Source of the DNA: Candidatus Nanohaloarchaea archaeon
GTDB lineage: Archaea; Nanohalarchaeota; Nanosalinia; Nanosalinales; Nanosalinaceae
Assembly: GCA_014297435.1 (NCBI GenBank)
Contig: JACOQA010000002.1
Span: 32,001-96,000, forward strand
DNA: 64,000 nt
Direction of reading: 5' to 3'
The position numbers and the translations under genes were made by a program. The notes under the pieces were generated by a model that was not told the origin of the DNA, made no database searches, and saw only the letters and a program-made list of their open reading frames with translations. Positions within the stretch are counted from its first letter, which is position 1. Each line of letters begins with the position of its first letter. Of the stretch, positions 23,580 through 53,759 are shown one piece after another.

Positions 23580-23637
23580 ATTCCTACATACTATTAGCGT
23601 TCTTTTTCAATAAATTGCAGATTCTAAAAAAGAGAGG

Positions 23638-24328: not shown

Positions 24329-24507
24329 TCAGGATTCTAACAAGATAAGGTAAAAGTATCTTAAAGTAGATAATCCTCCAGGTTTAATAGAAAAAGACTG
24401 CTCAACTTTCATTTGTTGGACATCGATATCTTTTGGTGCGGATGTAGCCATGAACCGTTAAATTTATTACTCTGGTGATACTATAGAATTCATAGGTGAT
24501 TCAATTC

Positions 24508-24741: not shown

Positions 24742-24744
24742 CTT

Positions 24745-25050: not shown

Positions 25051-25215
25051 ACCGATTGATTGGCAGAAACCTCTAGAAAAGATTAGATCCCTATAGAATT
25101 TCCTATCAGAGCTTTTCATACAACCGATTTAGATACTTGATTACAACCTGAAATTCTTCTCCCGGCTTTATCAATAACCGAGAATAATTGTTCTATTATA
25201 TTTGGTGAACTCTGT

Positions 25216-28200: not shown

Positions 28201-29169
28201 AACGATGTCATAGTCACAGATGACGACGGAGACAACGTCTACACAAGTCAGGCTGACACCCTAATCGACGATACCGACGGCACACAGGACGTGACGAATG
28301 GAGACCCACTTACAGGTTTCGCGGCTGCCACAAAGTACGAGGATGCCAACTCCAACACGCAGTTTGATTCCAGTGAAGTAGTGGTCGACGATTCCGATAC
28401 TGACGGAACCTACGACTCAGGAGAGACGATTCTGGCAAACGGAGGATCTTCAGGGAACATCCAGTACTGGTCCACCGATTCTTCGGAGACTTCTGGAGTT
28501 ACAGGTTTGAACTCGATTCTTCCTTCGAAGCCAGGACTTGTGGTTATTGAGGAGGAGACGGAGAACGGCGATCAGCACAGTTACACGGTCACACCGGGTT
28601 ATGATGGAGGTGATTCTGAGGTAACGGTTAATCAGCCTAGCTACAGTAGTTCGAACAGGCAGACCGCAACTCTTGAGTCGAACGATGACATTACTGCGGG
28701 AGTGGACCGTTACGGTGTCTACACAGAACATGACTCTGATGGACAGGGCTCGCTAACCCTGAACTACCCTGATTCGCAGGCAACTGCTGGAGCCGGCTTC
28801 GGAACCGGAGAATTAAGTTCGACAGGAAGTTCCAGCGTTCAGAGACCTGCCGGATGGCCTAACGCAGCAACCCTGGACACACAAGCCAGTCAGGACCAAA
28901 ACATGATTCTGGTTGGAGGTCCGGCAGTCAACACGTTGACAGAGACCTTGGCAGAGAACAACCAGACCAAGTCCTCGAGCGAGTACCAAGAGGACATGTG
29001 GATGCTTCAGACGGTTGAAAACGCTTTCAACCAGAACCAGGCATTAGTGGTTGCAGGGCACTCTGCCGAAGACACTCAGGCGGCTTCGAACTACCTTGCC
29101 AATTACCAGGACCACCAAGACGAGATGACTGGCAAGAGCTTGGAGAAGACAACGGTTTCAACACAGTGA
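25216..29169 (+). CDS. S-layer protein paralogue 2 with about 500-aa Asp-rich repeat insertion
   Basis: Same N/C motifs (DYPQPFV, TADVVGAIN, NMILVGGPAVN); DxDxDG-like repeats at about 26980-28530. Confidence 0.9.
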   Translation: MKDIKKIGKIGASLLVGVTLTASAAANLDDYPQPFVDDQGMVDSTIVVGENAKTADVVGAINMAGSLSQQATTTEKVSGAAQSWSMSQGATLDTSNDNLFFHDMISSVRQTLTENDLSALQTTTGLSGDAEQDIEQYLYVGDQKIEFGKTDDEEDPEVYVNNPSTVEADTPGSYLYQLQANFQEGVDFYDSSETTNKNTDVYGEELEMFGKTFTVSQDSFTSSNSGQLVLYGSSQDVQISSGESATITIDGEDHTISVQAVNTEGVVYSVDGESAEQDNVDETFDIGDTEVRIDSKINLKDDTGSATFSVGSEKLILEDDSSVMTGDDEEEVEGTDVKLELSDDGSDGDVTDGDGSIELSSVKVAVGAADSDENYVSSEQKFEDPVFGSLSFSFEGLSSLNEGEDIEVQAQNDETVEVSTNEITQGFAHYDGSFSLADDDGDKIVAVEGEPVQEDEYFTSDAGDFSHFWEVTGLDADAQDPSSGDTATVELEDKISGSSIEVELDANDVESGAGDSTREYEAEKVIDGQTYHFSYNTVSSGDENDDEVEVTWGTDSDYSATGSASSGATTAFPTIKTDNGARLAFYDPGQDPSGISIGASLTGFSSDEKFFDVAIQTNEGTNGFGSGDDIVRDIGGSGTYSDSADTNVAGTNPSDGTSLTTSNPWSGATNPIAFVDDSDSTWESGSDLIIEDLNNGGTVSLEADTTVSRGSDTTVDVTAGTSLNDLDETTYLAVDNGNNGFDAGTDDDIVTDDDEDGVYTSSADVLADANGASGTSFGGGTPASISTGDSLTAFDDTDNVYLIDTNNDGLQASGNDDVLFVDGDGDGDSTTGTVNTIINQSVDSTFTGSQLTSSNPISFNDQDSDGTTGNGEYELGQDIYVEENTAGARTYSASADTVVNDEGSADRDAGDSLVSVGSNAYYHDADSGGTYTSGDEIYLDLDSDSQYTAQADNHIAGITLSTAGAGTSVNTGNPWSAANPPVAFYDDGSGSWESGNDVIVTDDDGDNVYTSQADTLIDDTDGTQDVTNGDPLTGFAAATKYEDANSNTQFDSSEVVVDDSDTDGTYDSGETILANGGSSGNIQYWSTDSSETSGVTGLNSILPSKPGLVVIEEETENGDQHSYTVTPGYDGGDSEVTVNQPSYSSSNRQTATLESNDDITAGVDRYGVYTEHDSDGQGSLTLNYPDSQATAGAGFGTGELSSTGSSSVQRPAGWPNAATLDTQASQDQNMILVGGPAVNTLTETLAENNQTKSSSEYQEDMWMLQTVENAFNQNQALVVAGHSAEDTQAASNYLANYQDHQDEMTGKSLEKTTVSTQ

Positions 29170-29337
29170 TCGGCACCTCCTCTCAATCAATTTTCTCTTT
29201 CTTCTCTTGTATTCGAACTAAATTAGGAAACGTCTCAACCAAAGATACGATTGCTCCTTGTTCAAACGGTGTTCTAGGCGTATAATAATCGTTTACTTTC
29301 TGGAGAGTCCCTGTCTTTGACAGGTGGAACGAAAAAC

Positions 29338-31857
29338 ATGAAGCTAAACATAACGAAGAAGAACGTCTCGAAAGCTCTATACGGCGCAGGAACCGTTGCA
29401 GCCGCATCACTCCTGATAGCCGGAGCATCAGCACAGACAAACAACACGACCCAGACCAATCAAAACTCTGACAATACCACACAACAAAACCCAGAAAATA
29501 CTTCTACCAGCCTAGGGGATTTTCCTCAACCATACACCTCGGACAACCAACTCAACTCAATAATTGTTTACGGCGAGTCAGCCTCCGAAACCGATGTTAA
29601 CTCTGCGAGAAACCTTGCGGAAACACTTTACTCCGAAACCGGTCAGGAACCAAACGATACAGAAACCTCGAACACGACAAGCATGCAAGTACCTCTCACA
29701 ACAGAGAATGAAAGGCTTTACCTCGGATCGGGCATAGACGCTGCCAGAAACATTCTGACAGAAGACGACCTAGAACCGCTTAGAACAACCGAGTTTAACG
29801 GTGAGGAGGAGACAGAGGTCGAACAGTTCCTTAGAGTCGGAAACCAGAACATTTCTTTCGGAAGACCTGACGATGACTCCGAACCTTTCTTCTACATACA
29901 GAACCCGGTTCCAAGCCAGGAAAACCATCTCTACGAGTTAGAAGCTAACATGGATAGCCCTGTAGACTTTACATCCGAGGAAGCTTCGGGAGAGGACCTA
30001 AGTCTATTCGGCAGAACCTTCAGTGTTTCAAGCGAAACAAACGAGGACGAACTTGTTTTATTGACCGGTCAAAGAGATCTTGAGCTTAGAACCAACCAGT
30101 CCCGTACAGTAACGGTTGATGGAACCGACCACACCTTTTCCGTTGTAAGCGTTAACGATGGACAGGTCGCTATGAGGGTTGACGGAGAGCTGGAACAGTA
30201 TGAGGAAGACGAAAGCTTCGGTCTTAATGATGCGTCGATGAGAGTCGAAGAACTGATCGACTTAGAAGGAAGTAACGGCATCATACGTCTATCAGCCGGT
30301 TCAACCCAGTTAACATTTAGTAACGGTCAGATAAGCTCAGGCGGTGAAGAAATATCCGGCTTAAGTTATTCAGCGGCAGGCGGCTTCAACGAACTCGAAT
30401 CACTAAGTATCTTCATCGGAGCTACTGACGACGACAGCACCTGGATCAGGGAAGGCGAATCCTACACGTCCAACCTTTTCAGCCCTTCACTTAGCTTCGA
30501 AGGGTTTTCGAGAACCGGAACAAGCTCTGTAGAAGTAAATTCCGGTGAAACCACACAGGTCAGCTTCAACACCTCGGAAGAAAGCGCCTCAATCGGTTTT
30601 TCAACAGCAGTAGGAAACTCGACAGTTCTAGGACCTGAGGAGAACCAGACGATCGCAACTTACCAGAACCAGTCGCTTAACGAGGACGACTACATCCCTA
30701 CGGATGCCTCAGGCATCTCAAGGCTTTGGAGGATAGAAGGTGTTGATGCCGACGAAAACGTTTCAGAAGGACAGGCTTCCCTGGAACTTCAGGACGAACT
30801 ATCCGGCGCCTCTGCAAACGTCGAACTTGAGCCTTCAGAAGGCATTTACAAAGCTGAGAAAGTGGTTGACGGCAGAAGCTTCAGGTTTTACGTTACACCT
30901 GATGAAGAGGTGAGTGCGGTCTGGGATCCCGATACAACACCGCTGTTTCCCGCACTCCAGTCAGGACAGTCCGCCGTAGCCATGATTGATGACGTGATGC
31001 TTGATTTCGAAGGCGAGAGAACTTTCAGGCTTCCCGCCACGTCTGGAGAACCCACAGTAACAATCTCATCCTCAAGCGATTCGGTTGAAGCTGTTTCAAG
31101 CTCTCCAGGTGTAGAAACGAGAACGGAAAACGACACAGTTATTGCAACAGTGGAAGGCGGTCAGGAGTACGGTTTCAGGATACAGGACGGTCAGGTAATG
31201 GCAGGCGCCTACTCCGACAACAACATTATCGACAACCCTTCTCTTTTGATCGTTGAGCCTTCGAACAGCGATAACCAGCAGGAATCATACGTTGTGGAGA
31301 CAGGAGTAGATGACGAGGAAGCAGTTGTCAACGAAGCATACTACTCTGGTTTTATTCAGACAGCTGAGACGGATGACGAGGAGACTGTGGGTTACGACCG
31401 TTTCGGCGCCCGCTCCTTGTACGATGAGGATGATGGAGGTTTCGAGCTTTCGATACCTGAAACACAGGCTTACGCCGAACTAGGCTTCACCACATCCACC
31501 AACCAAACACAGGTCGATGAACAAGATTCGACTCCTGATATCGTTTACAACGCTTCAAACCCTCAGGTTTCAGAGTTGAGCCAGGACTCGAATGTAATCC
31601 TTGTGGGCGGTCCTGCAGTAAACTCTTTGACCCAAGAACTGGCTTCACAGGGCGTAACCCTTCCAGCAAACCAGTACAGTTCAAGCGGATGGCTTCTCCA
31701 GTCAACAGAAGGCTTTGGAGGAAACGCTTTGATTGTTGCGGGAACTACCGCAGAGGACACTGCCTCAGCAGCGGATTTCCTCTCGAACTACAGGGAGAAC
31801 TCTGAAATGCTTCAAAACAGATCTCTGCTCAGAAGTACCGAGGTCGAGACCAACTAA
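29338..31857 (+). CDS. S-layer protein paralogue 3, rich in N-glycosylation sequons
   Basis: DFPQPY, NVILVGGPAVN, ALIVAG...DT; ATG 29338 after SD AGGTGG. Confidence 0.88.
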   Translation: MKLNITKKNVSKALYGAGTVAAASLLIAGASAQTNNTTQTNQNSDNTTQQNPENTSTSLGDFPQPYTSDNQLNSIIVYGESASETDVNSARNLAETLYSETGQEPNDTETSNTTSMQVPLTTENERLYLGSGIDAARNILTEDDLEPLRTTEFNGEEETEVEQFLRVGNQNISFGRPDDDSEPFFYIQNPVPSQENHLYELEANMDSPVDFTSEEASGEDLSLFGRTFSVSSETNEDELVLLTGQRDLELRTNQSRTVTVDGTDHTFSVVSVNDGQVAMRVDGELEQYEEDESFGLNDASMRVEELIDLEGSNGIIRLSAGSTQLTFSNGQISSGGEEISGLSYSAAGGFNELESLSIFIGATDDDSTWIREGESYTSNLFSPSLSFEGFSRTGTSSVEVNSGETTQVSFNTSEESASIGFSTAVGNSTVLGPEENQTIATYQNQSLNEDDYIPTDASGISRLWRIEGVDADENVSEGQASLELQDELSGASANVELEPSEGIYKAEKVVDGRSFRFYVTPDEEVSAVWDPDTTPLFPALQSGQSAVAMIDDVMLDFEGERTFRLPATSGEPTVTISSSSDSVEAVSSSPGVETRTENDTVIATVEGGQEYGFRIQDGQVMAGAYSDNNIIDNPSLLIVEPSNSDNQQESYVVETGVDDEEAVVNEAYYSGFIQTAETDDEETVGYDRFGARSLYDEDDGGFELSIPETQAYAELGFTTSTNQTQVDEQDSTPDIVYNASNPQVSELSQDSNVILVGGPAVNSLTQELASQGVTLPANQYSSSGWLLQSTEGFGGNALIVAGTTAEDTASAADFLSNYRENSEMLQNRSLLRSTEVETN

Positions 31858-39911: not shown

Positions 39912-40433
39912 ATGGGCGACAAGTACTTCGACCTAGACCGAGATGAGCTTCTTGAGATGCTGGATTTTCTTGAAGAGGATGTCGAAAACGTCAGAAGGGT
40001 CGCCAAATTTATCGAGGAAAAAGATATCGACGCAGAGTTCCTTTTCCATGGAAAAAGCGAGTCAGCAAAGGATTCAGCGGAGAAAACAGATCTCGACCTT
40101 GATCAGATCGTGAAGACCCTGGTTTTCAAGACAGGGAACGACTTCGTTGCGGTTCTGTGCCCGGGCGACAGCAGAGTTTCCGAGCAGAGCCTGGAGGATT
40201 TGACAGGTTCGAAGGTCAGGATGGCAAAACCTTCGGAAGTGGAAAACCATACCGGTTATATTGTCGGAGGTGTTTCACCTTTCGATCTTGATATCGATGT
40301 TTTCATGGATATCTCGATACCTGAAAAGGACTTGGTACGCCCTGCCGCGGGCTCCAGGGTTGTTGGAGTTGAGCTTGAACCAGAAGAACTTGTTAGAGCT
40401 TTAAACCCTTCAATCGAGGATATATGCAGATAG
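39912..40433 (+). CDS. YbaK/ProX-family aminoacyl-tRNA editing protein
   Basis: QIVKTLVFK, TGYIVGGVSPF, AAGS. Confidence 0.9.
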   Translation: MGDKYFDLDRDELLEMLDFLEEDVENVRRVAKFIEEKDIDAEFLFHGKSESAKDSAEKTDLDLDQIVKTLVFKTGNDFVAVLCPGDSRVSEQSLEDLTGSKVRMAKPSEVENHTGYIVGGVSPFDLDIDVFMDISIPEKDLVRPAAGSRVVGVELEPEELVRALNPSIEDICR

Positions 40434-40462
40434 AAGAGTTGAGTTGTAAAGGTGGAACATAG

Positions 40463-41302
40463 ATGACCGGACGAAACCAAGTAGAAAGACAGCTGCAGGA
40501 AAGTGTGTTGGATCGCACAGGAGAACTGTGCTTCTATGCTTCAGAGGCGGAGAGAGCGCTGGACAGGTATCTTAAGACCAGAAAGCAGCCGTACGGAAGG
40601 ACAGCGCACGAAATGCTGGGGAAAACCGATGACCTGCTTTTCTACGCCGATAACCTGATGATCGAGGCAGAGGAACGAGACGGTGTGACCCTGATAGAGC
40701 CCTTCACTAGCGAACTGCCTTCGAACAGGGAGTTAAGATACATGCATGAAAGCGATGAGCTCGAAGGCGTCGTAACCCAGCTACTTGAAAGCATCAAGGA
40801 GGAATCGGAGGAACTCTATATGAAGGCTGTAAGCATTCCCTCTTACAGAGACCTAAGGAGACAGATCGATGCAGAGCAGCAGCGCGAAGAGCGGAGGGAG
40901 ATAGAGGAAGAGATGCTGGGGACGGCCCGAGAACTCAGGTTCTACAACAGCATACTTGAACACATATCCAGGACATCAAACAGCTTCAACATCGAGGCCG
41001 CGCTCGAGGAGGCCGAGAGGAACACAGAAAAAGGCTGGCAAGCCTACAAGAAGGGTATAGGACATTTCAGCGATCTTTCGGATTACAGAAGAAGGAACAA
41101 CCTAGAAGCCGGTAACAGATTCGTCAACCCGGATAAAGCAGGAAGCCCAAGCAACGCCGAGAACATAGAGAAAAGATCCGAAAGTTTCGGAGAGCAAGAA
41201 CTTTCAAGACAGATGGAAGAGTTCTTCGATACACTTAAACGGTCTGAAAACCTGATAAGCACCAACCCTCTGGACAAGCTGGATGACTCCGAAATTCTGT
41301 AG
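40463..41302 (+). CDS. Hypothetical helical protein
   Basis: 279-aa ORF after SD-like AGGTGG. Confidence 0.7.
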   Translation: MTGRNQVERQLQESVLDRTGELCFYASEAERALDRYLKTRKQPYGRTAHEMLGKTDDLLFYADNLMIEAEERDGVTLIEPFTSELPSNRELRYMHESDELEGVVTQLLESIKEESEELYMKAVSIPSYRDLRRQIDAEQQREERREIEEEMLGTARELRFYNSILEHISRTSNSFNIEAALEEAERNTEKGWQAYKKGIGHFSDLSDYRRRNNLEAGNRFVNPDKAGSPSNAENIEKRSESFGEQELSRQMEEFFDTLKRSENLISTNPLDKLDDSEIL

Positions 41303-41343
41303 AACCGCCAACAGTTTTAACCCTTAGACCCGCACAGCAAGTT

Positions 41344-42366
41344 ATGGACACCGAGGAGCGCAAACAACTGGTCCTGAGAAATACTACCGAAATCGTTACA
41401 GAAGAAGAACTTGACGAAGTTCTGGAAAAAGATAGTCCAACCACTTATGTAGGCTATGAGACCTCGGGTCCTGTACACCTCGGACACTGGGCATCCATAA
41501 GAAAACTGAACGATCTTCAAAAGGCAGGTTTCGACCTCAAAGTTCTCTTCGCAGATCTTCACACATACTTGAACAAGAAAGGCGAGGAGGAGTGGATCCA
41601 GACCATGACTGAGTACTGGGAAGCCACGTTCAAGGCCACAGGGCTTGACGCAGAGTTCGTCCGTGGCAGAGAGTTCCAGGAAGAGACAGAATACTTCCAT
41701 GACGTCCTCGAAATGTCGAAAGAAACCACGATTAACAGAGGGCAGCGTTCGATGGCGGAAGTTGCTTCAGGCGAAGAAGACAGCCAAAGCATTTCACAGA
41801 TCGTTTACCCGTTGATGCAAGCACTGGATATCGAATATCTTGATGTCGATCTATCTATGGGTGCGACCGATCAGAGAAAGATCCACATGCTAGCCAGGGA
41901 AGCACTGCCAAAAGTCGGTTACGACAAGCCGGCATGCCTGCACCACCCGCTGGTCGTGTCTCTACAGGGAACCGAGAAGATGAGTAGCTCTAAGCCAGGC
42001 ACCATGTTCCCTCTACATGCCTCCGAGGAAACAGTGAAGGAAAGGATCAAGGACGCCTACTGTCCTCAAGGCGAAATCGAGGACAACCCGGTAATCCAGA
42101 TCACACAGTTCCATATCTTCGGCGACGACGAAGAACTTGAGATAGAAAGACCGGAAGAGTACGGCGGAAACATCCACTACTCGAACCAGGAAGAGCTTGA
42201 GGAAGACTTCGAATCCGGCGAACTACACCCACAGGACCTGAAAAACTCGGTTGCCGACCACATCGCCGAGAAACTGGAACCGGTAAGGCAGAAGTTCAAA
42301 GATAATCCAGAGCTTCTGGACTGTCTGGAGGAGATCGGGCACGAGAAGCCGGATTACGTCAAATAG
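41344..42366 (+). CDS. tyrS: Tyrosyl-tRNA synthetase
   Basis: YVGYETSGPVHLGH, YPLMQALD, DQRKIHMLARE, KMSSS, LHPQDLK. Confidence 0.97.
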   Translation: MDTEERKQLVLRNTTEIVTEEELDEVLEKDSPTTYVGYETSGPVHLGHWASIRKLNDLQKAGFDLKVLFADLHTYLNKKGEEEWIQTMTEYWEATFKATGLDAEFVRGREFQEETEYFHDVLEMSKETTINRGQRSMAEVASGEEDSQSISQIVYPLMQALDIEYLDVDLSMGATDQRKIHMLAREALPKVGYDKPACLHHPLVVSLQGTEKMSSSKPGTMFPLHASEETVKERIKDAYCPQGEIEDNPVIQITQFHIFGDDEELEIERPEEYGGNIHYSNQEELEEDFESGELHPQDLKNSVADHIAEKLEPVRQKFKDNPELLDCLEEIGHEKPDYVK

Positions 42367-42446
42367 TCCGGTTTTTCTCCTATTTTTGAAAAGGGATGTT
42401 CTCCCGAGGACTCAGTTAGAAAAAATAGGAGAAAATATCGAAAATA

Positions 42447-43016
42447 TTACTGATTTTCCTGATACTCTTCAACTGCTTCTTCTAACATTTGCTTATTTTC
42501 TTCAAACAAATCATCAGCATTTTTCTTTGATTCTGCTCTTTGAGATTCATAGTTAACTAGATTCAATAAGCCCTGTGAATCTTCGTCCCCCATCAGTGCT
42601 TCAGCATAGTTGTCCGATCTTTGTTCTGATGAAAAGATGACATCGTGAATGGCACCATCACTTTGCTCGTAGATAGTGGCTATTGAATCCACAACAGCTC
42701 TACCCACACTTCTCCATTTATCTAGGGAATTATCTTGTGCATTCTCAACAGCGTTTGCGAAATGGACTGCGCCTCCATATACTGCTGAAGCTCCGTCTAC
42801 CAGGCTGTGTTCTCCTTCTCCCTCAGCAACATCGTTCGCCACCTCATATAGTCTTTCAACATCTTCTATCTCGACACCCGGAGTCATGTCCGAGGCGAAT
42901 TTCACAGTATCAAATCCGTACTCGAAGTGACCTTCGGTTTTCTCGGAAACTCCTGCGCCTTGTTCCAAAGCCTCATCAAGATGTTGTTCGACCGTTTGTT
43001 GAAGTTCGTCTTTCAT
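42447..43016 (-). CDS. Hypothetical acidic protein
   Basis: 189-aa ORF; TTTATAA about 27 nt upstream. Confidence 0.65.
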   Translation of the reverse strand: MKDELQQTVEQHLDEALEQGAGVSEKTEGHFEYGFDTVKFASDMTPGVEIEDVERLYEVANDVAEGEGEHSLVDGASAVYGGAVHFANAVENAQDNSLDKWRSVGRAVVDSIATIYEQSDGAIHDVIFSSEQRSDNYAEALMGDEDSQGLLNLVNYESQRAESKKNADDLFEENKQMLEEAVEEYQENQ

Positions 43017-43140
43017 ATGTAGTTATTTAAATCGAATACTTATAAATGTTACTGTGTAGTAGTTACACTTTTTTGTTGGATTTAGGGACCCATCAACATT
43101 AACTTAACTTCTAAAACTAGAATCTATACGTGATCCACGA

Positions 43141-43234
43141 ATGAAGGGTGGACGTTTTTCCAACAAAAGGTAGAATCGAAGCTGTAAAACCTGTTCTAGA
43201 AAAAGCTTTCTTCACAAGTGGTCTGTATGCTTGA
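43141..43234 (+). other. Micro-ORF cassette copy 4 (MKGGRFSNKR*, 43141-43173; +1 frame open to TGA 43234, overlapping the serS ATG)
   Basis: ATG AAG GGT GGA CGT TTT TCC; same motif as the three minus-strand copies. Confidence 0.45.
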
Positions 43235-44495
43235 TATCGAACTTTTCCGAAACAATCCCGAGAAGATTAAGGAGTCGGAGAAACGCCGCGACAAAGAACC
43301 TTCAAAGGTAGATAAGGTTGTAAAGACCGATGAGGAATGGCGTGAAAAGCTCCAGGAACTCGATAAGTTAAGACAGGAAAGAAATACTGTAGGCGATGAA
43401 ATAGCTTCGCTTAAACAAGAGGGTGAGGAAGCTTCCGAGAAGATCGAAAGAATGCAGGAAGTGAAAGAGAAGATATCTGAATTGGAGGAAGAAGTTGAAG
43501 ATCTCAAAGAGGAAAGAGATGAACTTCGTTACGAAATCGGTAATATCCTCCATGAATCCGTTCCTAAAGGCATGGATGAAGAAGATAACGTAGAGGAGAG
43601 AACTTGGGAGCCTGAGAATGGGAAGGACGAGGATTCCAGACTGGCAGCCGATATTATCGAAGAAAACGATTTAGTTGAGACAGAGAAGGCTGCAGAACTG
43701 GCAGGAGAAAGAGCTTACTACCTGAAAAAAGACTTGTTCCGCTTGAACCAGGCCTTGATCCAGTTCTCGATGGACCTTTTGAGCGAGAAAGGTTTCACAC
43801 CGATGCAGACACCTTACATGCTAAAGCACGAGCCTATGGCGGCAGCAGCCGAGCTCGAGGACTTTGAAGAACAGCTATACAAGATAGAAGATGAGGACAA
43901 GTACCTTATCGCTACTTCCGAACAGACCTTGGCTACTTTCCATAAGGACGATATCCTGCTTCCTGACGAGTTTCCGAAAAAGTACGCAGGATTTTCAACC
44001 AACTTCAGGCAGGAAGCCGGCAAACACGGACAACAAACCAGAGGCATCTGGAGAGTCCACCAATTCGAGAAAGTGGAGCAGTACATCTTCTGCAAACCCG
44101 AAAATTCGTGGGAGCTCCACGAGGAACTGCTTGATAACGCGGAAGAAGTTATGCAGGAGCTTGGACTTCCTTACCGCGTTGTGAACGTCTGTACTGGCGA
44201 TATGAATGATAATGCCGCGAAGAAGTACGATATCGAGGTCTGGAGACCTCCAATCGGCGAGTACGGAGAGGTCGTCTCGTGCTCTAACTGTACCGACTTC
44301 CAAGCCAGAAAAGTAAACGTCAGGATTCGCGGAAGCGATGAAAATCATGTAGCACATACATTAAACGCTACAGCAGTCGCAACCTCAAGGATCATGACAG
44401 CAATTATAGAGAACAATCAGGAAGAGGAAGGAGTAAGAATTCCTGAACCGCTCCAAAACTACATGGGCGGACAAAAGTACATAGAGACAGTTTAG
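43227..44495 (+). CDS. serS: Seryl-tRNA synthetase
   Basis: MLDIELFR, N-terminal coiled coil, LIATSEQ, FRQEAG, RVHQFEKVE, EVVSCSNCTDFQAR, HTLNAT. Confidence 0.97.
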   Translation: MLDIELFRNNPEKIKESEKRRDKEPSKVDKVVKTDEEWREKLQELDKLRQERNTVGDEIASLKQEGEEASEKIERMQEVKEKISELEEEVEDLKEERDELRYEIGNILHESVPKGMDEEDNVEERTWEPENGKDEDSRLAADIIEENDLVETEKAAELAGERAYYLKKDLFRLNQALIQFSMDLLSEKGFTPMQTPYMLKHEPMAAAAELEDFEEQLYKIEDEDKYLIATSEQTLATFHKDDILLPDEFPKKYAGFSTNFRQEAGKHGQQTRGIWRVHQFEKVEQYIFCKPENSWELHEELLDNAEEVMQELGLPYRVVNVCTGDMNDNAAKKYDIEVWRPPIGEYGEVVSCSNCTDFQARKVNVRIRGSDENHVAHTLNATAVATSRIMTAIIENNQEEEGVRIPEPLQNYMGGQKYIETV

Positions 44496-44779
44496 GCGCT
44501 GTGGGAGATTTCTCCGACCTTGCAATCCTCCTCTATCTTTTCTCCACCACAGCTTTCGTTTTCCGGAGCCGAAAGCAAAGCCATCAACTGAGTGTCCCTC
44601 AAACCTTTACCAGAGGAATTTTCTAGAGCATTCATAACGTCTTCTCTAAGATCCATCTCTTCATAATGTTCTGTATAGAAATCCTTCATCCCTTCTAGTT
44701 CTCTTCCGGTGTATTGACCTGTTTGACTTAGCTTCTGACTGAAAACATCGTAGGTCTCTATCTCGAAGTATTGGGACAT
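44492..44779 (-). CDS. Hypothetical small acidic protein
   Basis: 95-aa ORF with its own TTATAAA about 29 nt upstream. Confidence 0.55.
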   Translation of the reverse strand: MSQYFEIETYDVFSQKLSQTGQYTGRELEGMKDFYTEHYEEMDLREDVMNALENSSGKGLRDTQLMALLSAPENESCGGEKIEEDCKVGEISHSA

Positions 44780-44821
44780 GCTAACGTACCTGCTTCAATC
44801 TGAAGATTTATAAGAGATTGA

Positions 44822-45112
44822 CTAGTTTCCATCGCCGAACTCCCCCAGAGGGATCTCTGATGAGCCAAGATAATCAAAGGAATGTTCGTAATTCAGACCT
44901 CCATCAGCGACAGTTTCCTGATTTTCCTCTTCAAGCATCTCTGACTGGAAACCGTCCATCCCAAGCTGCTCGATATAATCCGGATCTTCGATTCCATAAG
45001 CTTCATCGCCCTCAACCATCAAATCGTCCTCTTTACTGGATTCGATATAGCCTTCAGGGTCTTGAACGATTGGAACTTCCGGATCTCTTCCTATCCTAGG
45101 ACAGTAATCCAT
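44822..45112 (-). CDS. Small acidic protein with TVADGG motif
   Basis: 96 aa; start overlaps the leader-peptide stop (TAATG); SD-like GGAGAGGGT. Confidence 0.65.
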   Translation of the reverse strand: MDYCPRIGRDPEVPIVQDPEGYIESSKEDDLMVEGDEAYGIEDPDYIEQLGMDGFQSEMLEEENQETVADGGLNYEHSFDYLGSSEIPLGEFGDGN

Positions 45113-45186
45113 TATAAACCCTCTCCAGATGTTTTTTCAGGTTTTGCGATGCGGCACCGTATTGTTGTGTGGTTGTGTGTTGTCAT
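45112..45186 (-). other. Thr/His-rich leader peptide MTTHNHTTIRCRIAKPEKTSGEGL*
   Basis: Read by hand; TAATG coupling to the 45112 gene; counterpart at 54884-54964. Confidence 0.55.
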
Positions 45187-45219
45187 ATCGAGTAGAACCT
45201 CGAAAAGAGAATTATTGGT

Positions 45220-45386
45220 TTAATGCAGCACTGCCACATTCACTGCGGCAGCGGAGAACATTTTAATTGAATGTTTAATTGAGGAGATCTGAGAAAACTT
45301 AGAGCAGAAGCTTCCGGGACTCAAGCACAAAACGTCCACCCTTGATTCCGCTCATATCCTAACAAAGTTCAGAAGACAGTTATATA
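45220..45386 (-). other. Promoter plus micro-ORF cassette copy 1 (MSGIKGGRFVLESRKLLL*, 45355-45299; +1 frame 45339-45220)
   Basis: TATATAA about 28 nt upstream of ATG 45355; AAG GGT GGA CGT TTT GTG C. Confidence 0.6.
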
Positions 45387-45400
45387 GTTTAGGACGGTTT

Positions 45401-46606
45401 CTACCAGACCATCAGTGAGTGCTCATCCCTTACAAGATCCTCATCCCATTTTTCAGGAACATTTTCAGGAACAAGTTTCCTGAGCTCCTCTTGATTCACT
45501 TCACCCAGAAGTCTTTTTCGCTCCTCTTTCATCTGTCCGGGTCTGTTTCTTATTGCGTCACGATCAGGCTCACCGTCAAAGCTTCCTCTAACGGCGTTAC
45601 CCAGTATGTGCGCCATGTCGTTGACGTCCTCGCCATTGATCCTCATGTCGTTATCGGAGTAAAGGATGAACTCGAGATCCGGATTAAATACGTATCTCCC
45701 GTCCCCGTCTGCCTCAACTAGGTATTCAGGAGCGCTCCTATCAATATGACCGAGCAAGCCAAGTCCATTGAGGGTTGCGGCGTGGCGACCCCACATCTCC
45801 GCGTCGTTCTTAGAGATACCCATACTATCAACAGGCTCTGACCATGAGTGAAGTATTCCAACATCAAGGTTCGATTTTTCATAACCTCTGTTTCTCGTTT
45901 TCGGTTCTTTGCTGTCTACCCATAATTGTTCAGGTCTTGTGAGACGTGTGAGTCCAGGATGTATTTGTCCTAATTCATCGTGTACGCCTTCGTCTCTATC
46001 GAGTGCTGTTCTCAGTCCTACTTCCTGTATCCAGCCTTGTTCTCCGTTTTCTATTTGACCGTTAGTGACGTCGTAGTTTCCTTCACCGAATACCTGTTGA
46101 AGGTTGGAAAGATCGCCGGCGTCTAGAGAGCTTCGGGTTATAAGGTCAGTATCATATGATCGGGCGACGCGTATTCCTATGTACTCATTGTCATCCGAAA
46201 CTGCGTATGCTGCACTTGGAGGCTGCTTTATTCCTTCAGGATCGAAATCTTCTCTAAAGAATATTTCAAACTCTTCATCCGGACCTTCTTCTGGCTCCAC
46301 CGCCAGTTTGACATCTAGCTCGTCTCTTTTTTCGTTGTATTCCTCCCAGAGCTGTTTCTGGTCTGGTTTCATCCGGGTACCTGTATTAGTGTTTCGCCCC
46401 ATGCTTCCTGAAGCCATGTATGAATTGCCCGAACGACCGCCATCGGATAGATCCTCTACAAGTTCATAAACAGGCTCGTGGACTATATCGAACATGTCTA
46501 GGACTGACTGCGGTTCGTCATCCACGTACACTTGGATGTCCTCAATGCGGCTTATATCGTAAGAATTCACTTCCCCCTCCCCGTCATAGCTACTGGCGAG
46601 TGACAC
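45401..46606 (-). CDS. Atypical protein-kinase-like (APH/Bud32-like) protein
   Basis: WGRHAATLNGLGLLGHIDRSAPEYLV...VFNPDLEF aligns by eye to G..LA.LH..G..HGDL...N.LV...IDxE. Confidence 0.5.
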   Translation of the reverse strand: MSLASSYDGEGEVNSYDISRIEDIQVYVDDEPQSVLDMFDIVHEPVYELVEDLSDGGRSGNSYMASGSMGRNTNTGTRMKPDQKQLWEEYNEKRDELDVKLAVEPEEGPDEEFEIFFREDFDPEGIKQPPSAAYAVSDDNEYIGIRVARSYDTDLITRSSLDAGDLSNLQQVFGEGNYDVTNGQIENGEQGWIQEVGLRTALDRDEGVHDELGQIHPGLTRLTRPEQLWVDSKEPKTRNRGYEKSNLDVGILHSWSEPVDSMGISKNDAEMWGRHAATLNGLGLLGHIDRSAPEYLVEADGDGRYVFNPDLEFILYSDNDMRINGEDVNDMAHILGNAVRGSFDGEPDRDAIRNRPGQMKEERKRLLGEVNQEELRKLVPENVPEKWDEDLVRDEHSLMVW

Positions 46607-46742
46607 TTATATCACTTCCGGCATCTTCAGTATGGATTTCCAAAGACCTGATAGAAGACTGCGAGTTAACCTTGCAGAAAGCATCCACCTTTTATTGTGG
46701 TGTAGCGCATACTTTATAGCGTTCAAACTCAGAATTTATAAA
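46590..46742 (-). other. Promoter plus micro-ORF cassette copy 3 (MRYTTIKGGCFLQG*, 46710-46666; +1 frame 46688-46590)
   Basis: TTTATAAA about 28 nt upstream of ATG 46710; AAA GGT GGA TGC TTT CTG C. Confidence 0.6.
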
Positions 46743-46808
46743 AGGACGTGGAGTCAGCGCCTCTAAAACCAGTATGGATTTAAGTGAGTTCATGTCTCAT
46801 GGAAGGGT

Positions 46809-48857
46809 ATGGAAACAACGGTCATGGTCGGGGAGAAGCCCAAAGTCGCCTCCCGGATCGCCAACGCCCTCGGAAACTACGACACCAAGACCAACCGAGG
46901 GGTCAAGAACTACGTAATCAAGACAGATGAGAGAAAGATAATCATAGCACCTGCCGTAGGCCACATATTCAACCTCGACCAGATCGCCGACAACTGGGAC
47001 TACCCTGTATTCGACGTAGAATGGAAGCCAACATTCGAAACTTCCGACTCGGCCGACTACATGAAGAAATACTACAACAACCTGAAAGACCAGCTGGAAA
47101 AGGCTGACACCTACATCAACGCGTGCGACTTCGACCTTGAAGGCTCTGTTATCGGATACAACGTTATCAAACACTTGACTGGTGCCGATGAAGAAAGAAT
47201 CGAACGCATGAAGTTCTCGACACTGACTCCTTCCGACCTACAGGAAGCATTTGATAACCTGGAGGATTTTGACGCCGGAATGACAGAAGCCGGAATAACA
47301 AGACACATTCTCGACTACTACTACGGTATCAACGTTTCCCGTGCACTGATGAAAGCGGTTAGAGATAACGACCGTTACAAGACTCTTTCTACAGGACGTG
47401 TGCAGGGTCCGACACTTAAGATCTTGGCGGACAGAGAAAAAGAAATACAGGAGTTTGAACCGGATCCTTACTGGGAGCTTTACCTAAAACATGCGGAGTT
47501 TGACGCTCAGTGGGAGGAAGACGAGGACAGGATCTGGGACCAAGAAACAGCGAACGACAAGTTCAACAAGGTATACGGAGAAACCGAAGCAGAAGTCACA
47601 AACGTGAAGGTAAACAACTATACGCACAAGCCACCGATACCTTTCAACCTGACAGGACTACAGAGCGAGGCCTCATCACAGTTCCGTATAAGCCCAAAGA
47701 AGACGCAGTCGATCGCGCAAACACTTTACGAAAACGGGCTTATCTCTTATCCTAGAACCGAGTCACAGAAACTGCCGCCGAAGATCGGATACAAGAACAT
47801 ACTGAACAAGCTGAAGGGTCAGGAAAGCTACGATAATCTGGCGAAAAAAGTACTGAAAAAAGATAAAAACGACAACCTTTACACGACGCAGGGAAGTAAA
47901 GAAGACGACGCACACCCTGCAATCTATCCAACAGGAGAAAGCCCGGGCGGAAAACTGTCAAAACAGGAGAAAAAAGTCTATGATTTAATTGTAAAACGTT
48001 TCTTCGCCGTATTCGGCAAACCAGCCAAACGTCAATCCCTTACCTTCACTCTCGACGTTAAGGAAGAAGAGTTCAAGGCCAAGTCAAAGGTTACAAAGAA
48101 GAGGAACTGGTACGAGCTCTACGATCCATACGTTAAAGTGGATTCGGCCGATCTCCCGGACATGGAGGAAGGCCAGACACTCCAGGTAGAAGACTTCGAA
48201 CTTGTTGACAAAGAAACGCAGCCACCTAACCGTTACAGCCAGTCAAAGATTGTCAACGAGCTTGAGAAACGAGAACTAGGTACAAAAGCGACACGTGCCG
48301 ACACCGTAGACCGCCTTTACGACAGGAACTACATCGAAGAGGAGCCTATCGAAGTAACGGACCTGGGACTTGCGATCGTAAACACTCTAGAGGACTACTG
48401 TGGCAACATCGTCTCCGAAGAGCTTACACGCGAATTCGAGGAAAAGATGCAGGAAATAAGAGAGCAGAAAAACACGAAAGAAGAAGTTCTGGAAGAGGCA
48501 AGAAACGAGTTAGGAGATATACTCGAAAAGTTCAAGGAGAAACAGAAACAGATTGGTTCAGAGCTTGTCGACACAATCGACTCCGAAAGAGAACGCAGAA
48601 GAAGACTAGGTCCATGCGATATCGAGGATTGTGACGGCACCCTAAAAATAATCAAGGCAAACGGCTCAAAATTCGTAGGATGCTCAAACTACCCTGACTG
48701 CGAAAACACATACCCATTACCGAACAACGGAGATATAAAGTCGACAAACGAGGTCTGCGAGGAATGCGGAACACCTAAGATCTTCGTAAGCAGGAAGAAA
48801 GGAAAAGACTACACGATGTGCCTATTTCCGGATTGTCCTACAAAAGATTCTTGGTAG
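46809..48857 (+). CDS. topA: DNA topoisomerase I (type IA)
   Basis: EKP, ACDFDLEG (TOPRIM), STGRVQGPTL, ISYPRT, AHPAIYPT, C-terminal Zn ribbons. Confidence 0.97.
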   Translation: METTVMVGEKPKVASRIANALGNYDTKTNRGVKNYVIKTDERKIIIAPAVGHIFNLDQIADNWDYPVFDVEWKPTFETSDSADYMKKYYNNLKDQLEKADTYINACDFDLEGSVIGYNVIKHLTGADEERIERMKFSTLTPSDLQEAFDNLEDFDAGMTEAGITRHILDYYYGINVSRALMKAVRDNDRYKTLSTGRVQGPTLKILADREKEIQEFEPDPYWELYLKHAEFDAQWEEDEDRIWDQETANDKFNKVYGETEAEVTNVKVNNYTHKPPIPFNLTGLQSEASSQFRISPKKTQSIAQTLYENGLISYPRTESQKLPPKIGYKNILNKLKGQESYDNLAKKVLKKDKNDNLYTTQGSKEDDAHPAIYPTGESPGGKLSKQEKKVYDLIVKRFFAVFGKPAKRQSLTFTLDVKEEEFKAKSKVTKKRNWYELYDPYVKVDSADLPDMEEGQTLQVEDFELVDKETQPPNRYSQSKIVNELEKRELGTKATRADTVDRLYDRNYIEEEPIEVTDLGLAIVNTLEDYCGNIVSEELTREFEEKMQEIREQKNTKEEVLEEARNELGDILEKFKEKQKQIGSELVDTIDSERERRRRLGPCDIEDCDGTLKIIKANGSKFVGCSNYPDCENTYPLPNNGDIKSTNEVCEECGTPKIFVSRKKGKDYTMCLFPDCPTKDSW

Positions 48858-50434: not shown

Positions 50435-50731
50435 TCATTTAGATGACTGTTCGCCATCGTGAAGTTTTTCTCTTTCTAGGTCGATTGCGGTATCGATCAA
50501 GAGACGTCCTAGCTGCCTTCCTCTTTCCCGGGACATGCCTTTTTCTTCGAACCTGTCCGCGAACTGCTCCATGACCTGTTCCTCCCGATTCTCATCCTTT
50601 ATCTCTATATCGTTTTTCTCTTTATACTCGATGACTTTGAGGACTTCTTCCATCCTGTCATCAATTTTCTCAACTATCTCATCGTTTATACTGTCGATGT
50701 TGCCGCGGGCATCTTCCAGAGGATTCGCCAT
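50435..50731 (-). CDS. aroQ: Chorismate mutase (AroQ type), copy 2
   Basis: LEDARGNIDSINDEIV...R...YK...IKDENRE. Confidence 0.85.
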   Translation of the reverse strand: MANPLEDARGNIDSINDEIVEKIDDRMEEVLKVIEYKEKNDIEIKDENREEQVMEQFADRFEEKGMSRERGRQLGRLLIDTAIDLEREKLHDGEQSSK

Positions 50732-50757
50732 AATAGGTTATGATTGAACGGTCTTTT

Positions 50758-51615
50758 TTACTTACGGACTTCATCGCTCAAATGCTCTATTACCAGATCT
50801 GTTCTTTCCTGCGCATCTTCAAGATCGAACTCTTCGCCCAACTCCTCAAACTTTTCTGCGAAAGCCTCTTCATCCCCTATTATTTCCTGTATCTCCTCAG
50901 CGGACTCCTTGAATCGTTCACGTACTTTTTCGTTCTCAGGGTTTTCGGCCTGTATAGAGCCGTAAAGTCCGGACTTCTGATTCAGCATTCTTGCTGTAAG
51001 ATCGGTAATTAACTGGTAGACCGGAGAAGAATATTCTGACATCTCCGAACCCGACATATCTGACTTCCTGATGGTTTCGGAAACCACGAGCTCTGAGAAA
51101 TGCATCAATCCCTGTACAAGACTCATCGCCTTATCATGCGACTCAGCATCTGTGACATGTATATGTGCGTCTTTCCGGTTCCAGAACTCTTCCATAGCCG
51201 TCCATTTCTTCCCTTCAATCGGAGTTAAGACAATTTTCTGACCTTCAACCGAGTTCGAAGGGGCATACATCGGATGCATCCCCAGAACTTCATCAGAATA
51301 CTGTTTCATAGCCTCTGTCGGCTTCTTCTTAACGCTTGTAATATCGCAGAACAAGGTATCGTCCGAAATATGTGAACCGATCTCTTCAATAACATCAACA
51401 GTTACAGCGATAGGAACTGCCACGATTACGACATCCGCATCTTTTACTATCTCGGTGTTTTCTCCAAAATCCCATCCATGTTTATTTGCCACTTCTTCGG
51501 CCTCTTCAAGACTTTCACCGGAGATAGTTATCTCGTTGTGTTCTTCGAGAAGTTTTCCTAGGTGTTGGCCGAACTGACCGGTTCCGCCGACAATAACGAT
51601 TTTTTCGTCTATCAT
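50758..51615 (-). CDS. tyrA: Prephenate dehydrogenase
   Basis: IVGGTGQFG, DITSVK, GMHPMYAP, HDKAMSLVQGLMH. Confidence 0.93.
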   Translation of the reverse strand: MIDEKIVIVGGTGQFGQHLGKLLEEHNEITISGESLEEAEEVANKHGWDFGENTEIVKDADVVIVAVPIAVTVDVIEEIGSHISDDTLFCDITSVKKKPTEAMKQYSDEVLGMHPMYAPSNSVEGQKIVLTPIEGKKWTAMEEFWNRKDAHIHVTDAESHDKAMSLVQGLMHFSELVVSETIRKSDMSGSEMSEYSSPVYQLITDLTARMLNQKSGLYGSIQAENPENEKVRERFKESAEEIQEIIGDEEAFAEKFEELGEEFDLEDAQERTDLVIEHLSDEVRK

Positions 51616-52745
51616 AGTTCCTCCTCCAGGATGTCGAACGCTTTGTTGATTTCTTCTTTAGTTGTTGAGCCGAAACATATTCTGACATTTTGATCGCTTT
51701 CCGGACCCATAGGTTCGCCAGGAACCATCGCAACACCTTCCTCGATCATATCAAGACAGAAATCCCAGGAATCCTCTTTAACCTCGGGAAATGCATAGAT
51801 CGCTCCTTCAGGCATCTGAAAATCCCATCCTAGCTCGTTCATTCTTTCGACAAGCAGGTCTCTTCTTTCCTCGTAAACCTGCCTCATCTCTTCAACGTGT
51901 GAATCATTTTCCAGTGCTTCAAGCGCTGCAATCTGCGAGGGTTTTGGCGGACAGGCAGTTGCTCCTCTCGCGACTTTCGCAAAGTTCTCTATATCATCTT
52001 CTCTTCCTACCACCCAGCCTATTCTCCAGCCAGTCATCGCATGATTCTTCGAAACTGAACCGATCACTACAGAGTTTTCACAGTATGCTGCAGGCGAATA
52101 ATGAGTCTTTCCATAATTCAGGCGATGGTATACCTCATCGGAAAGAAGCATGACGTCATTTTCTTCACAGAACTTTCCGATGTTCTTCGCTTGTTTTTCT
52201 GTTAGCATTCTTCCTGTCGGGTTTGAAGGCGTGTTAACCACGACAAGCTCTGCATCTTTCATTTCCTGCTTTGCTTCGTCTCTAAGTTCTTCGCCATCAA
52301 AGTACTCTACTTGTGTCCACTGATTGCCGTTAACCTCACTCATCAATTTGTACGGACCCCAGCAAGGATCGTTAAATACAGCTTCTTTGTTCGAGTCAAG
52401 CATTGCCGCAAAAACAGAGTAAATCGCTCCCATTCCGCCTGTAGCAACCATAACGTTTTCTTTAGAAAGCTCGGCGTTTTTCGGACCAGTTTTTTGCTTT
52501 AATCCTTCTTCCTCAACAATGGCTTTTCTCAATTTTTCAATACCTGTTACTGATGTATATCCCTGTTTCTGTTCGACTATTCCGTCTGCTGCAGCCTTTT
52601 TAACATGTTCAGGCGTGTCAAAGCTTGGCTGACCGATATCAAATCGGACACATTTATCTTGTTCTCTTGCTTTTTCCGAAATCTTTCTGATCGAAAGCTC
52701 TATGTTTTCAATTCTTTCACGCATCTTTACCACCGAATGATCCAA
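51612..52745 (-). CDS. Class I/II PLP aminotransferase (aspartate/aromatic)
   Basis: IGQPSFDTP, NTPSNPTG, SDEVY, SVSKNHAMTGWRIG, GAIY. Confidence 0.93.
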   Translation of the reverse strand: MDHSVVKMRERIENIELSIRKISEKAREQDKCVRFDIGQPSFDTPEHVKKAAADGIVEQKQGYTSVTGIEKLRKAIVEEEGLKQKTGPKNAELSKENVMVATGGMGAIYSVFAAMLDSNKEAVFNDPCWGPYKLMSEVNGNQWTQVEYFDGEELRDEAKQEMKDAELVVVNTPSNPTGRMLTEKQAKNIGKFCEENDVMLLSDEVYHRLNYGKTHYSPAAYCENSVVIGSVSKNHAMTGWRIGWVVGREDDIENFAKVARGATACPPKPSQIAALEALENDSHVEEMRQVYEERRDLLVERMNELGWDFQMPEGAIYAFPEVKEDSWDFCLDMIEEGVAMVPGEPMGPESDQNVRICFGSTTKEEINKAFDILEEEL

Positions 52746-53493
52746 GGACTTTAACCTCGGCGTAAGTTTCCAGACATTTTTTCGTGTTCTCGAATTTCTC
52801 AGAGTTCTGGTCGGCCTCCGCCTCTATGTAGAAAAAGTAGTTTCCAAGACCATCTTTAGTCGGCCGAGACTGGATGTACGCCAAGTTAATTCCGTGTCCA
52901 GAAAAACATGAAAGCATCGACCCTAGAAGACCCGGACGATCCTCACCCGGCTCCACTATCATCGATGTCTTACTGCCTTCACTTTGTTTACCGTTTAAGA
53001 TGAAGAACCTGGTAGTGTTTGACTCACGATCCTGTACGCTTTCCTCCAGAATGTTTAGATCGTTTAGTTGTGCTGCAAGCTTGGAGCAGATCGCGGCTTC
53101 ACCTTCTTCTATTTCCTCAGCGGCTTTGGCAGTGCTTGAAGACTCTTTTTTCTCCCAGCCATTTTCTCCAATTATCTTTTTTGACTGTGTCAGTGCTTGT
53201 GGATGAGACCGAACTTTCTCGACATCGTTAATGTTTCCTTCTTTTGAGGCTAGTACGTGATCGATCTCGACCTTTACCTGTCCTGTAACCTCAACATCTC
53301 TTTCTCTCAACAAGTCGATCGATTCTGTTACTCCACCTCCAAGAGAGTTTTCGAACGGTATTACTGCTGCCTTGGCATCTGATTCAACCGCCTCTGTTAT
53401 AGTGGAGACCGGAACCGGTTCATAGTTGGAGAAGTATTTTTCTGCAGCTTGATGGGTGTATGTGCCTTCAGGTCCTAGGAACGCTACTTTCAT
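52717..53493 (-). CDS. pheA: Prephenate dehydratase with ACT domain
   Basis: AFLGPEGTYT, PFENS, SHPQALTQ, NTTRF, DRPGLL, INLAYIQSRP. Confidence 0.95.
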   Translation of the reverse strand: MKVAFLGPEGTYTHQAAEKYFSNYEPVPVSTITEAVESDAKAAVIPFENSLGGGVTESIDLLRERDVEVTGQVKVEIDHVLASKEGNINDVEKVRSHPQALTQSKKIIGENGWEKKESSSTAKAAEEIEEGEAAICSKLAAQLNDLNILEESVQDRESNTTRFFILNGKQSEGSKTSMIVEPGEDRPGLLGSMLSCFSGHGINLAYIQSRPTKDGLGNYFFYIEAEADQNSEKFENTKKCLETYAEVKVLGSFGGKDA

Positions 53494-53759
53494 TACATAT
53501 CCTCTTCCTGTAAATCAACAGCAGTATCTATCAGTAGTTCAGCGAGTTCCCGACCTTTTTCTCGAGGTAGGTCTTCTTTTTCGAAAAGCTTCTCGAACTG
53601 ATCCTTAACAACTTCCTCTCTGCCTTCATCCTTGATTTCCATGCCGTTCTGTTTCTTGTATTCGCCGATCTCCTCGACAACGTTCATCCTGCGGGAAACT
53701 GCGTCAACGATCTCGGTATTAACCCTGTCAATCTCCTTCCGGTAATCCTCAAGATCCAT
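53493..53759 (-). CDS. aroQ: Chorismate mutase (AroQ type), copy 1
   Basis: LEDYRKEIDRVN...RR...YK...IKDEGRE...LQ; promoter TTTATAAAA and SD AGGTGA upstream. Confidence 0.9.
   Translation of the reverse strand: MDLEDYRKEIDRVNTEIVDAVSRRMNVVEEIGEYKKQNGMEIKDEGREEVVKDQFEKLFEKEDLPREKGRELAELLIDTAVDLQEEDM

Follow-up and report, generated by a model that had tools for sequence, protein, structure and literature searches.

A short leader cassette precedes serS, the seryl-tRNA synthetase gene, in the 64,000-nt stretch of nanohaloarchaeal (DPANN) DNA analyzed here (the window), and we tentatively read it, at a probability of roughly 0.4, as a codon-specific aminoacyl-tRNA sensor that would act by +1 frameshifting. 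The serS cassette itself is real and not a product of chance. It comprises a short zero-frame open reading frame (ORF), a GGTGGA block followed by TTT, a sense codon (X) placed directly after TTT, and a +1 frame without a stop for 24-36 codons after TTT, both in the ten copies examined and in two copies found later (Table 1). This conserved anatomy, together with the relations between the reading frames, the identity of X, and the distances from stop to start codons, can be read directly from the aligned leaders.

Table 1. Elements of the serS cassette, the two other cassettes of the window, and the copies of the family by group (window coordinates unless a related locus is named).
Feature	Position	Strand	Remarks
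Weak A/T-rich boxes ATTAACTTAAC, TTCTAAAAC	43098..43117	+	Candidate TATA of the cassette promoter P1
Zero-frame leader ORF, 10 codons (MKGGRFSNKR) + TAG	43141..43173	+	Sole ATG in the 60 nt before GGT
Shine-Dalgarno-like R-GGUGGA	43146..43152	+	GGTGGA invariant in 12/12 copies
TTT, proposed P-site slip codon (TTT-T)	43156..43158	+	12/12 copies
TCC (Ser), proposed A-site sensor codon X	43159..43161	+	Ser before serS in 5/5 genomes
+1 frame, 24 codons + TGA	43160..43234	+	Overlaps the serS start by 8 nt
Box 2, AAAACCTGTTCT	43186..43197	+	Second conserved block
TATA-like TAGAAAAAG	43197..43205	+	About 30 nt before the serS ATG; candidate serS promoter P2
serS, seryl-tRNA synthetase, 422 aa	43227..44495	+	TIGR00414, E = 3.9e-142; Pfam domains
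Cassette copy 2	45220..45387	-	TATA 45387-80; ATG 45355; zero-frame TAA 45299; X = GTG 45328-26; +1 TAA 45220
Cassette copy 3	46590..46745	-	TTTTATAA box; ATG 46710; X = CTG 46677-75; zero-frame stop 46666; +1 TAG 46590
serS group	window 43147, L001 1467, L005 2708, L029 2921, L002 2897	+	X = TCC in four, TCT in one (L002); then serS
tyrS group	L005 1533, L002 1699	+	X = TAC in both; then TyrRS (NF006330, E = 1e-125 and 8e-121)
Copy 2 group	window 45340, L001 3664, L002 4986, L003 4792	-	X = GTG in three, GTA in one (L003); convergent with serS
Copy 3	window about 46689-46692	-	X = CTG; diverged; then 401-aa orphan ORF

The SerRS encoded in the window is 95% identical to the protein of a Candidatus Nanohaloarchaea metagenome-assembled genome (L001) and 70-76% identical to those of five further nanohaloarchaeal genomes (L002-L005 and L029). 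Its start codon is the ATG at 43227-29, from which the product aligns with the SerRS N-terminal domain from residue 1. The gene closes a cluster of translation genes (39912-44495) that also comprises a YbaK/ProX-type tRNA editing-domain protein (39912-40433) and tyrS (41344-42366); in L002 and L005 tyrS lies directly 5' of serS, with a separate cassette on each gene. Besides SerRS and TyrRS, the window encodes AlaRS and LeuRS (5' end cut off), and its tyrS and alaS carry no cassette. A search for tRNA genes across the window found none, and no rRNA gene, including 16S, lies within it. Elsewhere in the window, the region 20533-31857 (+) encodes three large S-layer-like paralogues (932, 1317, and 846 aa), which share DNA segments of 72-80% identity (repeat families D1-D3 and D7).

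The first-pass annotation of this DNA had described the leader before serS and proposed that it mediates SerRS feedback by frameshifting. Its transcription of the leader is exact: ATG (43141-43143) is followed by AAG GGT GGA CGT, TTT (43156-58), TCC (43159-61), and AAC AAA AGG, the zero frame stops at TAG (43171-73), and the +1 frame (ORF 43148..43234) closes at TGA (43232-34) inside ATGCTTGA, over the serS start. The comparison it had called for, an alignment of related serS leaders, shows that the cassette, TTT-T, the Ser codon, and a +1 frame whose stop overlaps the serS start are kept in all five readable genomes. The frameshift reading is partly supported, having come through every comparative test that could be run at the level of sequence.

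Pattern and nhmmer searches of the window and six related nanohaloarchaeal loci yielded 12 copies of the cassette, distributed over the window and five of the six loci; the three copies in the window are all intergenic. The serS leaders counted are those of the window, L001, L002, L005, and L029, as L003 is masked by Ns at this site (about 2700-2850) and L004 is without the region; no cassette match was found in L004, whose serS upstream region is absent, and a second run of Ns in L002 (about 5010-5020) covers the start of copy 2. Within the window, the 19-mer at up to three mismatches has two matches against 0.05 expected, with two or more in none of 100 shuffles, and the 15-nt core recurs exactly at 43144-58 (+) and 45329-43 (-). 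The pattern search detected no cassette at 74 other serS loci from archaea and bacteria, where the best nhmmer match had E = 0.2. A long repeat or mobile element was rejected as the origin of the cassette: the copies share only the 15-19 nt core, and the cassette is covered by none of the largest 20 of at least 60 direct-repeat families.

The central block is constrained at the level of nucleotides. GGTGGA, three nucleotides of the form YGY, and TTT follow one another in all 12 copies, and TTT is fixed even though it is the minor Phe codon in window genes (0.30, against 0.70 for TTC). The Arg codon between them is CGT or CGC (TGC in copy 3), whereas CGY accounts for only 0.18 of Arg codons in window genes and AGA for 0.54. 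GGT is invariably preceded by a purine, which AAG, AAA, ACA, or TCG codons provide, and five to seven bases before GGT stands a conserved AAY triplet, which persists even in copies where the ORF does not include its first A. Conserved as RNA and held in a fixed reading frame, the block resembles recoding signals. GGTG also occurs within 20 nt before 9 of 63 gene starts, compared with 3.7% of background windows, at a spacing of 5-14 nt from the start codon (the Shine-Dalgarno sequence of gene 40463, for instance, is AAAGGTGGA). The TTT of the cassette, 5 nt after GGTG, stands at the short end of that range; this GGUG-UUU spacing falls short of that at start codons by only 2-3 nt and is less compressed than in prfB. 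Pairing of GGUGGA with the 16S rRNA tail is presumed from the 3' ends of other archaeal 16S rRNAs. The bases available for re-pairing at the slip codon are UUU-U in the serS (5/5) and tyrS (2/2) cassettes, UUU-C in copy 3, and UUU-G in the four copies with Val. Transcriptional slippage was rejected by inference, the T runs being just 3-5 long.

A second conserved block, box 2 (AAAACCT(G)TTCT), begins 27 nt after TTT in four of the six serS and tyrS cassettes and 30 and 49 nt after it in the other two (by eye). Its register in the +1 frame is lost in L002, so that a coding constraint does not account for it. A block of the same type (AAAACCT(G)TTCT / AAAACCTGAAAAAAC) is also found at 45130-45150 (-), before a 96-aa ORF.

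The +1 frame is distinguished by its scarcity of stop codons and by where it ends. Between TTT and the next start codon, in the seven gene-proximal copies, frame 0 contains 15 stops in 181 codons, the +1 frame 2 in 180, and the +2 frame 9 in 180 (P = 4e-4), a statistic that pools about five to seven semi-independent copies, with the serS leaders of the window and L005 sharing their 3' halves. Both +1 stops in this count come from the L002 tyrS leader, within its final 16 nt. Taken singly, the open +1 frames are unremarkable (P of 0.25-0.47 per copy in dinucleotide shuffles), and the product of these values is about 6e-4. In the four distinct serS leaders the distance from TTT to ATG is 68, 71, 68, and 92 nt, and the phase is identical in all of them; in the readable part of the L003 serS leader, the equivalent frame is open and ends in ATGA (read from the alignment).

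Zero-frame stops precede the serS start by 53, 53, 47, 44, and 47 nt, the tyrS start by 72 and 56 nt, and the start of the copy 3 gene by 59 nt. The +1 stop, in contrast, lies at -8 (four leaders) and -14 relative to the serS start, at -10 and +13 (the latter in L002) relative to the tyrS start, and at -17 relative to the start of the copy 3 gene. In the excerpt of PMC10666635 on Haloferax volcanii, a distance of 13-14 nt lowers termination-reinitiation to 40-60%, and 22-23 nt abolishes it. On that scale, zero-frame stops 44-72 nt away are too far for termination-reinitiation, and a stop that overlaps the start codon or is no more than about 13 nt away from it (a threshold taken from the same excerpt) is found in the +1 frame at serS, tyrS, and copy 3, so that only ribosomes in the +1 frame would be placed to reinitiate. 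The +1 stop of copy 2, 32-33 nt before the next ATG, is beyond the reinitiation range.

The codon after TTT varies by gene family and is conserved within each. Before serS it specifies Ser in all five readable genomes, and before tyrS it specifies Tyr in both genomes, an independent parallel to serS; before the genes of copy 2 and copy 3 it is Val (GTG or GTA) and Leu (CTG), respectively. In all 12 copies the proposed A-site codon is a sense codon (TCC, TCT, TAC, GTG, GTA, or CTG). Both changes observed within X (TCC to TCT and GTG to GTA) leave the amino acid of frame 0 as it is but alter that of +1, and the zero-frame peptides diverge completely right after X. From codon usage in the window, we calculate the chance of both cognate matches at about 0.080 x 0.027 = 0.002 if any codon is allowed and at about 0.07 if X must begin with T.

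The zero frame has the features of a translated leader ORF. A single ATG occurs within 60 nt before GGT, always in frame, in the 11 readable copies; its offset from GGT is -6, -12, -15, -18, or -21, and we estimate the chance that five further independent placements all fall in frame at about (1/3)^5 = 0.004. After TTT the zero frame is closed within 3-14 codons; the leader ORFs are 10-24 codons long. An A/T-rich 8-mer starts 31-42 nt before the cassette ATG in readable copies, and it follows the position of the ATG, not that of the motif, which fits leaderless translation of the short ORF. Leaderless mRNAs are also suggested for the window genome more generally by A/T boxes about 30 nt before the ATG of many genes, while internal genes carry Shine-Dalgarno sequences of the GGAGGTGA type.

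Both promoter caveats of the first-pass annotation were well founded. It had noted that the serS copy lacks a clean TATA, and this cassette indeed offers only the weak boxes listed in Table 1: its best A/T 8-mer starts 42 nt before the ATG and is the weakest among the copies, compared with clearer boxes at 31-38 nt in the other readable copies. It had also suspected a separate serS promoter, and a TATA-like box is present about 30 nt before the serS ATG, with TAGATAAAA at the same position in L005 and L003 and TTATAAAAT in L002. Judged by this conserved box, serS probably also has a leaderless mRNA that starts from P2, which would bypass the cassette.

From these features we infer a transcription start, a slip, a role for GGUGGA, reinitiation, and a response to serine, which would combine as follows. 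The upstream TATA box would direct an mRNA that starts at or very near the cassette ATG and is therefore leaderless, and ribosomes would read the short zero-frame ORF until UUU occupies the P site and the tRNA for codon X (UCC, Ser) is awaited. If Ser-tRNA is present, they would run to the zero-frame stop, 53 nt before serS, and would not reinitiate. If it is scarce, the peptidyl-tRNA-Phe would slip by +1 on UUU-U, probably aided by pairing of GGUGGA with the 16S rRNA tail, and the ribosome would then read the open +1 frame to the UGA over the serS AUG and reinitiate on serS. Slippage and reinitiation under Ser-tRNA shortage would thus raise SerRS synthesis when its product is short.

An extension of this scheme to a whole nanohaloarchaeal family of leaderless mini-ORF sensors, specific for Ser, Tyr, Val, or Leu tRNA and acting through a +1 shift and reinitiation, is possible, and we hold it with still greater reserve. 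The Val copies fit the slip-and-couple model poorly: X begins with G in copy 2, so that re-pairing from UUU to UUG would be poor. The genes behind the Val and Leu copies are fast-evolving or orphan and are not synthetases. A protein search with the 401-aa ORF behind copy 3 matched only itself among 3868 candidates, a search with the 96-aa ORF behind copy 2 gave no usable match, and the 96- and 95-aa ORFs near copy 2 were found in L001 alone among the six related loci. The copy 2 leader begins MSGIKGGRF, and its +1 frame, 35 codons long, is conserved at its C-terminal end in L001, L002, and L003. When the window is compared with L001, the intergenic stretch of copy 2 is better conserved than the downstream 96-aa protein (56% amino acid identity), and copy 2 may serve a further role. 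The copy 3 leader begins MRYTTIKGGCF, and its +1 TAG at 46590 overlaps the GTG (46606) of the acidic 401-aa orphan ORF (45401-46606); the -1 frame likewise ends directly at this GTG.

Several further features were observed around these copies. At copy 2, a hairpin (CTGCCGCA/TGTGGCAG, 45231-45251, minus strand) with a variable loop is kept in L001 and L002 and is weaker in L003, and a conserved TTCTCTTTTCGAGG lies 3' of it; a short T run also follows copy 2. The hairpin could act as a terminator or an attenuator or form the 3' terminus of a small RNA. A 24-codon upstream ORF (uORF; 45112-45186, minus strand) ends in a TAA that overlaps the ATG (TAATG) of the 96-aa ORF (44822-45112), and the same overlap is present in the L003 counterpart. 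In L029 (3001-7264), the Ser cassette is followed directly in a row by serS, serine hydroxymethyltransferase, thymidylate synthase, and folC, a gene run that looks like a serine/one-carbon operon.

The same leaders were considered under other explanations. Everything found in frame 0, namely the in-frame ATG, the A/T box, the cognate X, and the divergence after X, would serve equally a leader peptide that only stalls, in which a ribosome paused at X alters transcription read-through, mRNA stability, or the use of the serS-proximal promoter, with no frameshift; for the Val copies it would also dispense with the awkward slip on UUU-G. We nevertheless regard stalling alone as unlikely, as it leaves unexplained the depletion of stops in +1, the end of this frame at the next start codon, and the choice of the slippery TTT over the preferred TTC, and there is one sensor codon and no run of them. 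Nor did folding reveal the alternative hairpins through which such a pause might be read out: in eight leaders compared with shuffles, z ranged from -1.3 to +1.8, none significant (+1.8 for the serS leader of the window), and no terminator or antiterminator hairpin was found in any of the eight. An unstructured leader is what would be expected of a translated region. The lack of folding bears equally on a structured RNA, a T-box-like leader that would bind tRNA directly through X and the GGUGGA block. X matches the amino acid of the synthetase, as such a sensor would have it, and AGGGUGG resembles the start of the bacterial T-box sequence, whereas the A after UGG would call for a U73 discriminator base, and X stands just 6 nt after GGUGGA, unlike T-box geometry. 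No Rfam family reached its gathering score anywhere in the window, and in 42950-46900, at E up to 5, only chance-level miRNA and snoRNA matches and no T-box were found; we consider this explanation highly improbable.

Conservation at the nucleotide level, which extends to third codon positions and minor codons and keeps AAY where its first A falls outside the ORF, would suit an operator, with the 19-nt block (AAY NNN R GGTGGA YGY TTT) bound by a DNA- or RNA-binding regulator just past the transcription start of a small regulon and the ORFs being incidental. An incidental ORF would hardly bring with it one in-frame ATG, and no other, in each of the 11 readable copies, an X that is family-specific and varies only synonymously, or a +1 frame depleted of stops; the A/T box lies at a variable distance from the motif (about 37-53 nt) and at a steadier one from the ATG (partly by eye), and the site has no dyad symmetry (by eye). 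An operator is accordingly quite unlikely. Overlapping small genes, in which the +1 ORF would start at the GTG of the motif (GTG GAY GYT TT.) and encode peptides of 28-39 aa unrelated to serS control, are very doubtful, even though the ORF listing does start from GTG at 43148..43234 and 45220..45339 and four genomes share a conserved C-terminal end of the +1 ORF at copy 2. The change of CGC to TGC in copy 3, R to C in frame 0 and silent in +1, likewise suits an internal GUG start and counts against the sensor reading. This GTG, however, would lie 7-22 nt from the presumed 5' end and abut its only Shine-Dalgarno-like bases, the changes from CGT to CGC and within X are non-synonymous in +1, and the in-frame ATG would go unexplained. 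The +1 peptides are otherwise poorly conserved among orthologues, and Pfam, at E up to 1, matched none of five leader, +1, and uORF peptides, a set that included the modelled trans-frame product P0002.

The means by which archaea adjust synthetase levels to tRNA charging are, to our knowledge, largely unexplained, and we know of no archaeal cell that regulates a gene by a +1 frameshift sensor of the kind proposed here. A literature search found nothing on frameshifting, leader peptides, synthetase control, or such cassettes in nanohaloarchaea. DPANN-type symbionts are expected to be without much biosynthesis, which makes a run of aromatic amino acid genes at 50435-53759 (-) notable; it comprises two chorismate mutases, a prephenate dehydrogenase, an aminotransferase, and a prephenate dehydratase. 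As nanohaloarchaea are host-dependent symbionts, a sensor of this type would reveal how the supply of amino acids is read. In the excerpt of a 2021 review, one programmed frameshift (-1) is recorded in a cellular archaeal gene, and a +1 shift is only suggested, for a haloarchaeal virus (PMC8211752). If the sensor reading is true, the cassette would represent the first case of programmed +1 frameshifting in a gene of a cellular archaeon and the first feedback on aminoacyl-tRNA synthetases that operates through a frameshift; it would also be a clear example of hungry-codon frameshifting in physiological use. In function it would parallel the T-boxes and attenuators of bacteria, and so compact a sensor, about 90 nt long and with an exchangeable codon, would introduce a new regulatory principle for organisms with leaderless mRNAs.

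Among known systems, T-box leaders, the pheST attenuator, and the thrS operator tune a synthetase by means of a cognate leader codon that reports tRNA charging. A short leader ORF with a cognate codon, as in the trp, his, and pheST attenuators, is present here as well (Ser for serS, Tyr for tyrS); classical attenuators carry runs of cognate codons. Unlike T-box, pheST, and thrS leaders, the cassette has no T-box fold, no terminator/antiterminator pair, and one sensor codon, and its proposed readout is a change of frame followed by reinitiation. In hungry-codon frameshifting and in yeast Ty1 (CUU-AGG-C), the P-site tRNA slips by +1 when the A-site tRNA is limiting, which is the event proposed for the cassette; those cases, however, yield fusion proteins or errors, and we know of none that serves as cognate feedback on an aminoacyl-tRNA synthetase gene. 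The GCN4 uORFs provide a eukaryotic example of a translational sensor before the regulated gene. Hungry frameshifting and antizyme are both mentioned in the excerpt of PMC8211752. The antizyme +1 frameshift resembles the cassette as a translational sensor in or before the regulated gene. The signals, the sensed molecules, and the domain of life differ from those of antizyme and GCN4.

In its proposed mode of action the cassette comes closest to the bacterial prfB system and to hungry-codon frameshifting. The prfB system, as far as the excerpt of PMC10798248 describes it, has a short zero-frame ORF, a slippery P-site codon, and a slow A-site codon that reports on the gene's own product, as proposed for the cassette, and a Shine-Dalgarno-like sequence a few nucleotides upstream, to which GGUGGA, 3 nt before TTT, would correspond if it pairs with the 16S rRNA tail. 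In contrast to prfB, the sensor codon is a sense codon and not a UGA sensing RF2, the +1 frame is a 24-36 codon spacer that ends at or near a separate gene and not the body of a protein, the Shine-Dalgarno spacing is less compressed, and the host is an archaeon; with a sense codon as X and a +1 frame that is only a spacer, the cassette is not a member of the prfB class. The proposed coupling to the downstream gene resembles termination-reinitiation in Haloferax volcanii, in that the +1 stop overlaps the downstream start and stops more than about 20 nt away should not couple (excerpt of PMC10666635). The Haloferax volcanii pairs are full-length genes with the usual overlaps of 4 or 1 nt, whereas here a leader ORF would be coupled through longer overlaps of 8-17 nt and only after a frameshift.
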